Assembly (NCBI GenBank): GCA_052246695.1
Contig: JBQQCK010000017.1
Source of the DNA: Gracilibacillus sp. D59
Lineage (GTDB): Bacteria > Bacillota > Bacilli > Bacillales > Amphibacillaceae
Length of the DNA stretch: 24,000 bases
Reading direction: 5' to 3' (one strand)
The notes under the pieces were generated by a model. It saw only the letters and a program-made list of their open reading frames with translations. It was not told where the DNA came from and ran no database searches. This document shows positions 9,932 through 21,581 of this stretch, one piece after another. The translations under genes and the position numbers were made by a program. Within the stretch, counting starts at the first letter, position 1. Each line of letters opens with the position of its first letter.

Positions 9932-10381
9932 TTATAACATATTTAGAAACTTTTCTTTGAGGGCTTCTGCTTCTTCTGTTGTTTTACATATAATAAGAAT
10001 AGTATCATCACCACAAATACAACCTACAATTTCTTCCCAACCTAAATTATCAATTAATGCTCCCATTGCCTGTGCATTACCTGGTAAAGTTTTCATCACG
10101 ATGAAATGTGTGGCTGTATCTATACTGATAAATGCATCCATGATAAATCTTTTTAATTTGTTTAATGGATTAAATTTTTGATCAGCCGGTAAACTATACT
10201 TATACCTACCATCTGTAGTAGGGACCTTAACCAAATGTAATTCCTTAATATCACGTGAAATGGTTGCTTGGGTAATACCATATCCTTGGCTCCTAAGCTC
10301 TTCCACTAAATCATCTTGTGTTTCAATTTCATTCTCCGTAATGATTTCACGAATTTTAATATGTCGCTGAGCTTTATTCAT
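9932..10381 (-). CDS. argR: arginine repressor ArgR/AhrC
   Basis: 149 aa with a winged-helix N-terminus ([11 protein letters not shown]) and a C-terminal oligomerisation domain (GTICGDDT-like: [12 protein letters not shown]). Synteny is tlyA-argR-recN. Confidence 0.93.
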
Positions 10382-10410: not shown

Positions 10411-10438
10411 GAAAATGGACTACTTAACCGGTAGTCCA
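10411..10438 (-). terminator. hairpin / probable intrinsic terminator or attenuator between tlyA and argR
   Basis: The minus strand has TGGACTAC (10438-10431), loop CGGTTAA, then GTAGTCCA (10423-10416), followed by TTTTC. Confidence 0.55.
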
Positions 10439-10444
10439 ATTGGT

Positions 10445-11266
10445 TTAGCGATCTAATGCCTGGTGGGATTCTGTTACTACTTCTTCTGTCAAAGCTAAAA
10501 AATCCATTTCCTCTTCTATATTGAAATCTGATTTTTCCAATAAACCCAGGTATTCAATATTACCATCGCCTCCAGTTATTGGAGAAAAGGTTAAATCCAA
10601 AATATGAAAACCTGTTTTTTTTGCAAAAGATAATATATCTTGTAATACTTGCAAGTGTATAGCTGGGTTTCTCACAATCCCCTTTTTGCCCACTTGCTCT
10701 CTCCCAGCTTCAAATTGAGGTTTGATTAAGATAACTGCCTGACTATCTAATGATAACAATTGGAAAAGCGATGGTAAAATTAATCGTAAAGATATAAAAG
10801 AAACATCTACTGTAGCAAAATTTGGTGTCTCTTTTGTTAGCATGTCTGGTGTCACGTATCGAAAGTTAGTTCTTTCCATTACTACAACACGTGGGTCATT
10901 TCGTAATTTCCAGTCTAATTGATTATATCCTACATCGATCGCATAACTTAACTTCACACCGTTTTGGAGGGCGCAATCAGTAAATCCCCCAGTAGAAGAA
11001 CCGACATCAACCATCACTTTATCACTTAAATCTAAAGAAAAATAATCAATCGCTTTTTCTAATTTTAATCCGCCACGTCCAACGTATGGTATCGCCTTAC
11101 CCTTTATATCAATCGGAATATCATCGTTTACTTTTGTACCAGGCTTGTCCATTCGTTGTCCTTTTGAGAAGACGAGACCGGCCATGATTGTTCTTTTAGC
11201 CTTCTCTCTGGATTCACTTAAGCCTCGATCAACTATTAATTGATCTAGTCGTATTTTTTTACTCAT
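10445..11266 (-). CDS. tlyA: TlyA-family rRNA 2'-O-methyltransferase (YqxC)
   Basis: 273 aa with an N-terminal S4 RNA-binding domain (RLDQLIVDRGL) and an FtsJ-like methyltransferase motif (VDVGSSTGGFTDCAL). It lies immediately downstream of dxs. Confidence 0.9.
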   Translation of the reverse strand: MSKKIRLDQLIVDRGLSESREKAKRTIMAGLVFSKGQRMDKPGTKVNDDIPIDIKGKAIPYVGRGGLKLEKAIDYFSLDLSDKVMVDVGSSTGGFTDCALQNGVKLSYAIDVGYNQLDWKLRNDPRVVVMERTNFRYVTPDMLTKETPNFATVDVSFISLRLILPSLFQLLSLDSQAVILIKPQFEAGREQVGKKGIVRNPAIHLQVLQDILSFAKKTGFHILDLTFSPITGGDGNIEYLGLLEKSDFNIEEEMDFLALTEEVVTESHQALDR

Positions 11267-11272
11267 TATTCA

Positions 11273-13171
11273 TCATGCCCTTTTTTGCTCATCATTACTA
11301 ACGGCTAATAATTTTTTTAATTCCACAACAATTTGATCCTTTGTCAAATTTATTTCTTGCAGAAGTTCATTAACATTACCATGTTCAATATATTGATCAG
11401 GAATACCCATTCTTTTAACTTGTGGATGATAATTATTTTCTTCGGCAAACTCAAGAACTCCAGATCCAAATCCACCTTTAAGTACTGCTTCTTCCACAGT
11501 TAATATCGGGATATTTTTACTCATTCTGTCATGTAAAACCTCTTCATCTAAAGGTTTAATAAATCTTGCGTTGATTACTTCAACATGAATGCCTTGCTTT
11601 TGCAGATAGTCGCTCGCAGCAAGAGACATTTCAATTGTAGTACCAAATGTTAGGATAACGGCATCCTTTCCTTCTTTTAACACTTCCCATTTACCGATAG
11701 GCACAGTTTTTAGTTGCTGATCCATTTCAACACCTAAACCATTTCCTCTCGGAAAACGAACAGCGATTGGACCTTTATCATAAGAAATAGCCGTGTTCAC
11801 CATGTGTTGACATTCATTTTCGTCTTTTGGCATCATAATCACCATATTAGGTAAATGACGTAAGAACGCAATATCAAAAACCCCTTGATGTGTTTCACCA
11901 TCGGCCCCAACTAGCCCTGCACGGTCAATACCAAATGCAACATTTAGATTTTGGCGACAGACATCATGTACTAATTGATCATACGCTCTTTGTAAGAAGG
12001 TTGAATATATCGCAAGAAAAGGTTTCATTCCTTGCGTTGCCAAACCTGCTGAAAACGTTGTAGCATGTTGTTCTGCAATACCTACGTCAAATAAACGTTC
12101 AGGATATTTTTCCTGAAATTTATCCAGTTTGGAACCAAGAATCATGGCAGGTGTAATCACTGCAAGGCGTTCTTCGTTCGCAGCAATAGATTCTAATGTA
12201 TCACTTACAACTTGACTCCAAGCAGGTGCTGCATTAGCTGGCTTGATTTTTTCACCTGAATCAATTTTATACGGGCCAACACCATGCCATTTATCTTTCT
12301 TATCTGATTCTGCAGGGTAATATCCTTTTCCTTTTTGCGTAATAACATGAACCAATACAGGCCCTTGTGTTTTTTTTGCATATTCAATATGCTCTTCTAA
12401 ATCCTTAAAATCATGGCCGTCAACTGGTCCGAAATAAGTGAAACCAAATTCCTCAAACAACATTCCCGGAACCATAAAATATTTCATACTATCCTTCACT
12501 CGTTCTGCTGTTTGAGCAATCATGCCTCCAACCGCTGGAATTCTTTTTAACAGGATTTCTAATTCATCCTTGACTCGATTGTATTTTCCGGCACTTCTCA
12601 TTCTTCCCAATGCATTATGTAGTGCCCCAACATTGCCTGCAATAGACATTTCATTATCATTGAGAATAACCGTGATATTTTTCTTTTCATGACCAATATG
12701 ATTTAAAGCTTCCAACGCCATGCCGCCTGTTAAAGCCCCATCACCAATAATTGGTACAACATAATTGGTATCTTTTTTCATGTCACGAGCGACTGCCATA
12801 CCCATAGCCGCTGAAAGTGACGTTGAGCTATGTCCTGCTTCCCAAACATCATGCTCACTTTCGATCATTTTTGGAAAACCGCAAAGACCTTTATACTGTC
12901 TAAGCGTATCAAATTGATCTGTACGTCCTGTCAAGATTTTGTGAATATAGGATTGGTGTCCGACATCAAAGATTAATTTATCTTCAGGACTATTAAATTG
13001 CTTATGCAACGCAAGTGTTAGTTCTACCACTCCTAGATTAGCACCTAAATGACCTCCTGTTACGGATAACTTTTCAATTAGGAACTGACGGACTTCACTA
13101 GCTAATACTTCTAGTTCTTCCGCATTTAATTGTTTAAGAAATGCTGGATTTTTTATCTTGGTTAGATCCAT
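11273..13171 (-). CDS. dxs: 1-deoxy-D-xylulose-5-phosphate synthase
   Basis: TPP-dependent transketolase-like protein ([34 protein letters not shown]). The start is taken at ATG 13171 ([13 protein letters not shown], aligning with the B. subtilis Dxs N-terminus), with GGGAGG 8 nt upstream. The track TTG at 13198 is probably spurious. Confidence 0.95.
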
Positions 13172-13206
13172 GAAGGAATCCTCCCTACTTTTATTCAAGA
13201 TTCGCC

Positions 13207-13785
13207 TTATTTATTCGACAATACTTTTATTTTAAATTTTTCTTCTAAAAATGCAATTATTTTACCAACTATAAATATTATATTAGTTGATGAATGAATG
13301 GCAAAGAACTTACCCAGTGCCTTACCTCCTACTGTTAATGCAGCAACAAGGCTTGTAAGAATTACGTTAATGGATAGATGAAATGTTGTTCCTTCCCCAT
13401 AGCCAAACCCATTTGAAACTTGCAGTATAACGATAGCAGATGCTGTTCCACTTATTATACCAGAAATATCTCCAATCACATCATTACAAAAGCTGGCAAA
13501 TCGATCAGCATTTCTGACAATCTGTATCGCTTGCTTGGAACCGCTTACCTTCTCTGCTGCCATTGCATGAAATGGTACTTCATCTGCTGCAGTTGCTGCT
13601 ATACCTAGCATGTCAAAAAACACACCTATAAATACAATAATAAATACGATCACTAAGCCAATGATCGACATTACTCCATTTAATATGGACGAAGATACTA
13701 CTGAAAAAATAGCCGCTAACACAAACGTGATAACGGCAATGCTTAAACTAAATTTTATCGACTTTTGCAAATGTTGTTTATTCAT
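13207..13785 (-). CDS. oapA: small multi-pass membrane protein, OLE-associated protein A (OapA)-like
   Basis: 192-aa ORF with about four hydrophobic helices and a polar loop ([29 protein letters not shown]). RBS GAGG lies 7 nt upstream of the ATG. It is wedged between the large structured RNA and dxs (35-nt gap to dxs), the arrangement described for oapA. Confidence 0.75.
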
Positions 13786-13839
13786 ATTAAAACCTCGTTA
13801 ATTGGGTACATTATGTATACAGGTATGGAATGGTCATTT

Positions 13840-14438
13840 TAAAGGTAAAAACTGCGGCTTAGGTCCAGTAGGTTTTCCCAGACAGGTACCGAGTGTTGCC
13901 ACTCTGGCGGTTCCCCTTTAAGCCTGTCTTAGCGCAGTCACCCGACGCTAGACTGGATTACCACTTAGTCCGCACTATAATCCCTTTTAAATGTCCTATT
14001 GGAACAGTCTAGGAGATTTCCTCAACAACCCTTAACCGTTTCCTAGCCTCTTTTGCAGTACGAATTTCATACAGAAAAACATGTTCTAAACTAGTGGCCA
14101 TCCAGTTAAGAACACTTGTTACCTGTAATCCCCTTCGTACCACTCAAGGCAGGCTACGCTACAAATAAGGATTCCCTCACCCTTATTACGTAGGTTCATA
14201 CCCCATTCCATACTTCATTCTTGGCTAAGCATAAAATACAGATATGGGCCTCCGCGGAAGAAGGGTCGTCGCCCACATGCCTTTGTGGATCGCCCTTCAA
14301 CCTTAACTCCCAGCATCGACCCAAGGCTGGGCGCCTCAAGCCAACACAAGGAACTTCATCGATGTGCCCTTTGGCGGATTTTTAGGCCCGCCTTCAGAAA
14401 CGGAGGATTGACTAGAATACTGCACCATCCCATTAACT
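13840..14438 (-). ncRNA. ole: OLE-class large structured non-coding RNA (~600 nt; ends approximate)
   Basis: The six-frame track has no ORF anywhere in 13802-14477. Hand-counted GC is 55% (13861-13920), 53% (14221-14280) and 58% (14281-14340), against 25% in 13741-13800. Many nested helices are present, including a GNRA-capped hairpin. The context ispA-RNA-oapA-dxs and the same-strand orientation match the published OLE locus. Confidence 0.75.
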
Positions 14439-14445
14439 TACTTCA

Positions 14446-14474
14446 AATATAACATGTTTTTTATTTTTTCTCAA
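14446..14474 (-). promoter_or_regulatory. candidate sigma-A promoter with extended -10 directly upstream of the OLE-like RNA
   Basis: The minus strand reads TTGAGA (14474-14469), a 17-nt spacer, then TGtTATATT with the -10 hexamer at 14451-14446. The -35 starts 4 nt after the ispA stop codon. Confidence 0.55.
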
Positions 14475-14477
14475 TAA

Positions 14478-15362
14478 TTACTGATCTCGCTCACTTAAAT
14501 AACTACTTATTAAAGCCAGATCTGTGTTTTCCAGACCAACTTCCTTCAGACATTGGGCTGCTTCCTTTACATACTTTGCTTTATATTGTTTAGCTCCGTC
14601 TAATCCTAATATGCTTGGGTATGTGCTTTTCTCATTATCAATATCACTGCCAACACGTTTACCAATTGTTGCTTGATCACCTTCGATGTCTAAAATATCA
14701 TCTTGAATTTGAAATATAATACCTAAATAATCACCATATTTCTTTAAAATTTCCATTTTAGCTTGAGATATACCTGCTAAGAATCCGCCAATTTCTATTG
14801 CAAATGAAATAAGGCGTCCTGTTTTTAAATGATGAATGTTTTCCAGGTCTTTGATGGAAATGTCTTGGTTTTCTGCTTCCATATCCAAAAATTGTCCAGC
14901 AACCATCCCTTCTAATCCGCTTGCTTTCGATAGCTTGGCTACAATATTAACTTTTTCTCTGTCAGTATATAAATCGGAAGTGGTAATAACATGAAAGCTA
15001 TTAGTTAATAACCCATCGCCCGCTAAAATAGCTGTTGCTTCATCAAACTTTTTATGATTGGTTAGTATTCCTCTGCGATACGTATCATCGTCCATTGCAG
15101 GGAGATCATCATGGATCAGAGAATAGGTATGGATCATTTCTAATGCAATTGCAGCAGGATACACTTTTACTGGATCTTCTCCAAGTCCTGTACAAGTTAA
15201 TTTCATTAAAAGTGGACGTAATCTTTTACCGCCTGCTTCAATGGAATATAAAACGGATTCACGTAAACGATCGGGGATATTTAACCCTTTAAGGTAAGAC
15301 ATCAGTGCGCTATTTAATTGTTGTTGTTCTTTCAGTAACAATGATTGTAATGATTGATCCAC
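14478..15362 (-). CDS. ispA: farnesyl diphosphate synthase (polyprenyl synthetase family)
   Basis: 294 aa with the first Asp-rich motif LIHDDLPAMDDD and the second FQIQDDILD. Synteny is xseB-ispA. Confidence 0.93.
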   Translation of the reverse strand: MDQSLQSLLLKEQQQLNSALMSYLKGLNIPDRLRESVLYSIEAGGKRLRPLLMKLTCTGLGEDPVKVYPAAIALEMIHTYSLIHDDLPAMDDDTYRRGILTNHKKFDEATAILAGDGLLTNSFHVITTSDLYTDREKVNIVAKLSKASGLEGMVAGQFLDMEAENQDISIKDLENIHHLKTGRLISFAIEIGGFLAGISQAKMEILKKYGDYLGIIFQIQDDILDIEGDQATIGKRVGSDIDNEKSTYPSILGLDGAKQYKAKYVKEAAQCLKEVGLENTDLALISSYLSERDQ

Positions 15363-20990: not shown

Positions 20991-21224
20991 TTTTGCACCC
21001 CTTCAACTTTTGTTACAATTAATAACAGGTACTAATAACTCCTTCTAACATTTTACGCAATAGATATAAAAACTGCAACCTTTCTTTTTTAAGGAGCGAT
21101 ATTAATAAATACTGAGACTGTGAAATAAGAAAAACCAACACAGTACGTATTAGTACTAGATATAAAACTCGAACCAATGAAACTTCTGATTAGTGTAGCT
21201 TTCACCCATTCTTCAAGTTGAATG

Positions 21225-21470
21225 CTAATTCATCGCTGGGGAAAATTCGACACTCCGTGGAACGGCTAAAAGAGGCCACGTCCAGTGACCAACGCCGACA
21301 CTTGATCGTCCTGCTCTTCGAAACAGCAACAACTGAACCCCATAAGAAGTGATTTTGCTCTGAGGAGGCTGAAATGTTGCACTTGTGCCCTGGATAAAAG
21401 AGAGTTTTTTTCCGCAGTGACCTTCAAGCACTCATCAATAAAAGAATGGAAGAAGTAATCCATATGACTG
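21225..21470 (-). other. unassigned GC-enriched island, candidate structured RNA or decayed gene remnant (strand tentative)
   Basis: Hand-counted GC is 55% (21241-21300) and 45% (21301-21420) in a ~35% genome. The only ORFs here (68 and 65 aa, overlapping, no RBS) have non-protein-like sequence. Local hairpins need G-U pairs on the minus strand that would be C-A mismatches on the plus strand. Confidence 0.35.
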
Positions 21471-21510
21471 TTATTTCTCAGTCTATGTTTTCACGCATTT
21501 TTACTATCCC

Positions 21511-21547
21511 TTATAAAATAAAAATGCCCTCGAGAAATCTCAAGGAC
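21511..21547 (-). terminator. rho-independent terminator of the spoIIIA operon
   Basis: The minus strand has CCTTGAG (21545-21539), loop ATTT, then CTCGAGG (21534-21528, one G-U pair), followed by GCATTTTTATTTTAT. Confidence 0.7.
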
Positions 21548-21581
21548 ATGTTAACGTGTATTGAAACAAAAGACAACGGAT

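Follow-up and report, generated by a model that had tools for sequence, protein, structure and literature searches.

OLE RNAs form an already known family, whose hosts belong to Bacillota and are typically extremophiles or anaerobes, and Puerta-Fernandez et al. 2006 is said to be its source reference. The function and the architecture of these RNAs have been addressed in several studies (PMC12265935, PMC12286853, PMC3413148, PMC7936274), and a survey across GTDB in 2024 recovered 2,822 matches (Fernando and Breaker, 2024, PMC11332333). An abundant and stable transcript, membrane localisation and stress phenotypes have been reported for Halalkalibacterium halodurans only (PMC3413148). The protein partner OapA is related to CNNM proteins and carries a distinctive DxxxD motif, and the occurrence of OLE correlates with the presence of oapB and oapC in the genome and with the absence of mpfA (Fernando and Breaker, 2024, PMC11332333). 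Searches of the literature library used returned nothing on OLE together with Gracilibacillus, nor on OLE together with ispA and dxs.

Gracilibacillus is a halophilic genus. The window, i.e. the whole stretch of 24,000 nt that was analysed, contains a gap of 692 nt (13786-14477) with ispA on one side and an ORF of 192 aa on the other. The first-pass annotation had interpreted this gap as an OLE RNA and had proposed a covariance-model search of the minus strand. This search clearly supported the interpretation: the Rfam OLE model (RF01071) matched the minus strand from 14444 to 13814 with 533.4 bits (gathering score 50, E 5e-154). The match spans positions 1-616 of the 616 model positions and is not truncated, the corresponding stretch of the window being 631 nt long. 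In the Rfam scan, OLE alone passed the threshold, while no other RNA family and no tRNA did so within the 24-kb window. Taken with the neighbouring gene, the element is almost certainly a functional OLE RNA gene of the full-length type from a Gracilibacillus, accompanied by its partner gene oapA. The features of the locus are collected in Table 1.

Table 1. Coordinates of the OLE locus, its flanking genes and the structural elements of the RNA (positions in the window).
Feature	Position	Strand	Remark
ispA (farnesyl diphosphate synthase)	14478-15362	-	upstream neighbour of OLE
Proximal promoter-like site	14446..14474	-	-35 TTGAGA 14474-14469, 17-nt spacer, extended -10 TGtTATATT 14454-14446
OLE RNA gene, full-length type	13814..14444	-	extent of the RF01071 match
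Structured core	13827..14431	-	P1 closes both ends
P1	14431-14424 / 13834-13827	-	95% standard pairs over 108 sequences; 30-44% when slid
P3.1	14410-14405 / 14031-14026	-	88% standard pairs; double changes in 5/6 pairs
P3	14403-14397 / 14042-14036	-	96% standard pairs; double changes in 7/7 pairs
A-rich-loop hairpin GGCGGG/UCCGCC	14373..14392	-	98% pairing in the helix; loop conservation of 97% or more
Long P9-type arm, loop UGGCCA	14046..14150	-	palindrome GGCC at 14099-14096
3' multi-helix domain (P12-P15 region)	13835..13993	-	helices 14-19 are 81-100% paired
P13 hairpin	GUGA tetraloop 13941-13938; bulged U 13945	-	predicted OapB site
P14.1	GCAA tetraloop 13899-13896	-	second GNRA loop
oapA (192 aa)	13207-13785	-	downstream neighbour of OLE
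dxs	11273-13198	-	3' of oapA
tlyA	10445-11266	-	3' of dxs
First terminator-like hairpin downstream	10416..10438	-	after tlyA
argR	9932-10381	-	third gene 3' of oapA

Compared with the full-length OLE RNA as defined by RF01071 and by the consensus of Fernando and Breaker (2024), the window copy has the same length, the same conserved bases and all consensus helices including P7-P9, the same OapB site in P13, the same dimerisation loops and proximal promoter, the same ispA, oapA and dxs flanks and likewise a host belonging to Bacillota. It differs by small insertions in variable loops only (631 nt versus the 616-position model) and by six mispairs. The conserved core bases are also common to variants 1 and 2 of OLE, but in these the P7-P9 region is shortened or missing and the OapB site is often absent, whereas the window OLE has all of them; the presence of P7-P9 assigns it to the full-length type and to neither variant. 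The nearest OLE sequences among the matches listed are those of G. massiliensis and G. kekensis, which share 90-91% identity with it along the entire RNA and have the promoter hexamers in an identical arrangement; the few substitutions are mainly located in the variable P5, P6 and P9 stems. With respect to the OLE of the model organism, an alkaliphile, the host considered here is a moderate halophile. The window copy is an ordinary member of the family without any departure from the full-length type. Its value is chiefly one of annotation: protein gene callers leave a hole of 692 nt followed by a 'hypothetical protein', where OLE RNA and OapA are the right labels. Being a clean OLE of full length from a halophilic host, it could also be used in comparative or structural work.

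The minus strand of the window reads spoIIIAE-AH, accB, accC, asp23, nusB, folD, xseA, xseB, ispA, and from there on OLE, oapA, dxs, tlyA, argR, recN, spoIVB, spo0A. The order that had been stated for OLE loci, running from xseA through xseB, ispA, OLE, oapA and dxs to tlyA, is found here on one single strand and extends upstream to nusB and folD. The earlier heading, which placed the RNA between ispA and dxs, has to be corrected as it is flanked by ispA and oapA. Among the matches listed, an ispA-like gene lies immediately 5' of OLE in 88 of 95 loci, an OapA-like ORF of the same orientation comes next on the 3' side in 97 of 100, and a dxs-like gene is found 3' in 55 of 67. The gene order around the window OLE is thus typical of OLE loci. 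Lyon and Breaker (2025) name ArgR as a candidate, so far unpublished, for binding to OLE.

The GC enrichment of the gap that had been counted by hand was recovered in the 60-nt blocks starting at 13861, 14221 and 14281 (55.0, 53.3 and 58.3%, respectively), while the 5' end of oapA given for comparison has 30% GC and not 25%. With 47.1%, the OLE stretch is the GC-richest stretch of 631 nt in the window (mean 35.3%, sd 2.8). For the minus strand, folding gave a minimum free energy of -237 kcal/mol (z = -7.3 against shuffled sequences), and the plus strand reached z = -3.0.

The gap had also been described as free of ORFs. None that is conserved was found inside it; nine ORFs of 30-55 aa do overlap it, and the possibility was considered that the gap encodes one or several small proteins, for instance from an ORF of 30 aa (14428..14336) or from one of 55 aa (14285..14452). 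For eight of the nine, an intact frame is kept by only 3-25 of 107 relatives among the matches listed. The ninth, the one of 30 aa, has no stop codon in 60 of these 107 relatives, which speaks in favour of coding, but it lies within a near-invariant part of the RNA and displays no codon-position pattern (0.872/0.897/0.904), the third position being not more variable than the others. A Shine-Dalgarno sequence was looked for at this ORF and none was found, and its bases are used in covarying helices. On the basis of ORF conservation and codon-position tests, protein coding was rejected, and its probability is considered negligible; a conserved ORF, which had been named as an observation that would speak against an OLE RNA, is not present in the gap.

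In order to evaluate the structure of the RNA by comparison, one genome per species was scanned for the conserved 19-mer AAAGGGCACATCGATGAAG, which gave at least 120 loci and a sample skewed to sequences containing this 19-mer. A total of 118 of the 120 listed loci were similar to the window OLE, 107 of them over near full length, and the sampled OLE loci belong to Bacilli, Clostridia, Alicyclobacillus, Paenibacillus, Thermoactinomycetaceae and others. Two matches to the 19-mer, in Streptomyces and in TA06, displayed no similarity to OLE and were discarded as chance hits, about four of which are expected in 596 Gb according to our own estimate. Sequences from the listed loci were aligned with MAFFT (108 sequences, 57-91% identical to the window), an alignment which, if anything, underestimates the pairing of variable stems such as P5 and P9 (55-76% paired).

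Over these 108 sequences, the Rfam structure is 88.5% paired, as compared to 40-46% when the 3' partners are slid by 1-3 columns, and double-sided changes are seen in 122 of the 157 consensus pairs. The compensatory base changes that had been called for in homologous regions are therefore plentiful. A pair-count tool applied to 20 diverse sequences gave a similar picture: 86.4% of cells were paired versus 68.3% after shuffling (none of 500 shuffles reached as high a value), the covariation score was 0.523 versus 0.208 for shuffled and 0.11-0.15 for slid sequences, 121 pairs displayed double changes, and 15 of 19 helices were at least 80% paired. At least 97% identity was found at 186 of the 631 positions, in a sample biased to sequences sharing the 19-mer, in agreement with the approximately 25% of nearly invariant bases taken as characteristic of the family.

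Mapping of the 157 consensus pairs onto the window yielded 151 standard pairs. The six non-standard pairs could be taken as a sign that the element is a decayed and non-functional OLE remnant, and nothing more specific speaks for that reading. They are located at positions that are also variable or mispaired in relatives, and the window has the consensus base wherever conservation reaches 90% or more in the 108-sequence alignment. Moreover, the RNA is 91% identical to the OLE of G. massiliensis, the promoter is kept, and oapA is intact with its invariant residues. A remnant is extremely unlikely in view of these observations.

Four of the five helices that had been listed before coincide with covarying helices of the Rfam consensus. 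This applies to GGCGG/CCGCC (14373-14377 / 14388-14392), to the extended hairpin at 14260-14298, to AATAAGG/CCTTATT (14164-14170 / 14181-14187) and to the multi-helix domain at 13853-13974. The pairing CTAGGA/TCCTAG (14041-14046 / 14009-14014) did not hold: G14043 is replaced by A in 40 of the 108 listed sequences with the partner C unchanged. This helix was rejected, its bases being taken by the covarying P3 and by a long-range CUAG/CUAG pairing.

The structure line of RF01071 misses P1, P3 and P3.1, yet all three covary over the 108 sequences, and P2 has probably been left out as well. In P1, exchanges between GC, AU and UA pairs are present. Both P3 and P3.1, with 5' strands within 14397..14410 and 3' strands within 14026..14042, are also found in the energy fold. 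The P2 candidates CAGU/ACUG and CUAG/CUAG (14422-14412/14012-14005) are invariant, and covariation therefore neither supports nor contradicts P2. In the published architecture, P3 closes domain 1 (P3-P9), and P3 and P3.1 together typically comprise 12 bp (Lyon and Breaker, 2025). In the window they enclose domain 1 and add up to 13 bp. P1, P3 and P3.1 of the window match the published architecture.

Several elements to which a function has been attributed can be located in the RNA. The A-rich loop CUAAAAAU at 14386-14379 probably corresponds to the published A-A contact of the OLE dimer, which is described by Kretsch et al. (2025, PMC12286853) and Lyon and Breaker (2025); it was mapped by its conserved A-rich sequence, and the stem numbering is provisional. 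The loop of P9 is presented by Kretsch et al. (2025, PMC12286853) as a symmetric kissing loop of the dimer, with GGCC/GAUC/AGCU covariation. The GGCC loop is kept in most of the aligned relatives among the matches listed. Both dimerisation elements, the A-rich loop and the palindromic P9 loop, are present in the window, and the dimer itself may be proposed by analogy only. Binding of OapB has been ascribed to a GNRA tetraloop and a single-base bulge in P13 and to a second GNRA loop in P14.1 (PMC7936274). A GNRA loop is found in 106 of the 108 listed sequences for P13 and in all 108 for P14.1.

Upstream of the RNA, the proximal promoter-like site shows 10 of 12 matches and includes the TG. The start of OLE transcription is predicted near 14439. 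Like sites occur in the listed OLE loci with a diverging spacer sequence, their distance to the conserved CAGTAT being comparable (21-24 nt in most cases), and a promoter score of at least 9 out of 12 was obtained in 86 of 108 OLE loci among the matches listed. For B. halodurans, Wallace et al. (2012, PMC3413148) demonstrated by experiment that a proximal promoter of this kind drives OLE. A terminator-like site was looked for in the interval between OLE and oapA and none was found; together with the common strand, this makes co-transcription of OLE and oapA likely. The hairpin that follows tlyA is the first terminator-like one downstream and possibly represents the end of an ole-oapA-dxs-tlyA transcript.

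The likely co-transcription raises the question of whether the structured region controls oapA, dxs and tlyA in cis, as a riboswitch-like or attenuator-like leader, instead of being a separate functional RNA. No expression platform, neither a terminator/anti-terminator nor a sequestered ribosome-binding site, is visible, and with 630 nt and about 25 helices the region is far above the size of any known leader. In addition, the OLE family is described as a very stable (half-life of approximately 3 h) and abundant RNA that binds OapA, OapB and OapC (PMC3413148, PMC7936274), and in three of the listed OLE loci the RNA is not followed by oapA. All these evidences make a leader highly improbable and argue for a separate OLE RNA.

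The three loci just mentioned belong to MAGs of Ammoniphilus, Bacillaceae and Paenibacillaceae, in which an OapA-like ORF was searched for in the 8-kb piece, also by profile search, and was not detected. In two of the three, OLE is followed by an ORF of about 630-670 aa, and in the Bacillaceae MAG the next ORF leaves the piece at 432 aa. Full-length OLE was also found on two contigs assigned to Proteobacteria, labelled Succinivibrio sp. and Pseudomonas sp. ISL-84. These are probably mis-binned or mislabelled Bacillota DNA, and the same mis-assignment has been suggested for 24 non-Bacillota OLE matches (Fernando and Breaker, 2024, PMC11332333).

The gene downstream of the RNA begins 28 nt past the RF01071 match and is preceded by a GAGG ribosome-binding site (13796-13793). 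A 'hypothetical protein' from Gracilibacillus sp. D59 shows 100% identity to its 192-aa product, and relatives are named CNNM or DUF21. Pfam and NCBIfam gave no assignment for this product. Its match to PF01595 (CNNM) reached 18.0 bits and stayed under the gathering threshold of 28.4. The DxxxD motif is present as D102-V-I-G-D106, and no exception to DxxxD occurs in the 99 OLE-linked homologues among the matches listed. Hydrophobic segments were recognised at residues 8-68, 103-121, 134-157 and 162-180. The AlphaFold (AF2) model is all-helical with a pLDDT of 81.9. A Foldseek comparison of the model with the PDB placed MtCorB chains (7M1T/7M1U) as the top four hits with a probability of 1.00 and a weak E-value of 0.04, which points to a CorB-like fold; a sequence search against solved structures returned no match. 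The size of the protein, within the approximately 190-200 aa of OapA, and the predicted fold, CNNM-like with four membrane helices and no CBS domains, agree with OapA. From synteny, the invariant DxxxD, the sub-threshold CNNM match, the hydrophobic segments and the CorB-like predicted fold, the 192-aa product is identified as OapA.

The MpfA/CorB CNNM Mg2+ transporters are relatives of OapA and among the closest known systems: the predicted fold of OapA is nearest to the transmembrane domain of MtCorB and PF01595 matches weakly. Unlike MpfA/CorB, OapA lacks CBS and CorC domains and possesses the DxxxD motif and four membrane helices instead of three (PMC11332333), and its score stays below the Pfam threshold. 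It is a distant CNNM relative and not a member of PF01595, in agreement with Fernando and Breaker (2024, PMC11332333).

Family membership, structure, the promoter-like site, gene order and the features of OapA were obtained here from the window, while membrane localisation, dimer, protein partners and phenotypes are taken from the literature and would apply to the window organism by analogy. In the Gracilibacillus host, transcription of the RNA would start at an extended -10 promoter of its own, and read-through from ispA would probably contribute as well. The RNA would fold into approximately 605 structured nt closed by P1, and two copies may dimerise via the A-rich loop and the kissing loop with GGCC, by homology with H. 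halodurans and with the cryo-EM structures from Clostridium. OapA, a CNNM-like four-helix membrane protein with DxxxD, would anchor the RNA at the cell membrane, OapB would bind the GNRA loop of P13, and OapC would bind the kink-turn, at which the RNA bends sharply. By analogy, the resulting particle may aid tolerance of short-chain alcohols, cold, excess Mg2+ and poor carbon sources. In the favoured model, the RNA would act as a scaffold and regulator, at the membrane or through it, together with a CNNM-like protein related to ion transport, and the part put forward as crossing the bilayer is the 13-bp P3/P3.1 stem. A position of the P3 stems beside OapA and across the bilayer is a model built from partial cryo-EM structures (Lyon and Breaker, 2025). 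That P3/P3.1 (14410-14397 / 14042-14026) indeed crosses the bilayer, which would make the OLE class an integral-membrane RNA with a CNNM-like protein, is considered very unlikely. This reading concerns the OLE class and not the window copy, in which just the presence, conservation and expected length of the stem can be seen.

Two further observations were made elsewhere in the window. A second ORF-poor gap of 591 nt (20991-21581), in which ORFs do not exceed 68 aa, lies between accB and spoIIIAH. It contains a match to the Rfam Bacillaceae-1 RNA (21253-21317, plus strand) that, with 28 bits, stays below the gathering score of 35 and has several mispairs. At 81-1691 on the minus strand, a regulator of 536 aa resembling PAS and sigma-54-activator proteins is encoded. 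Its match to Sigma54_activat covers the first 58 of 168 profile positions only, and judging from this partial match the AAA+ domain of the regulator may be degenerate.
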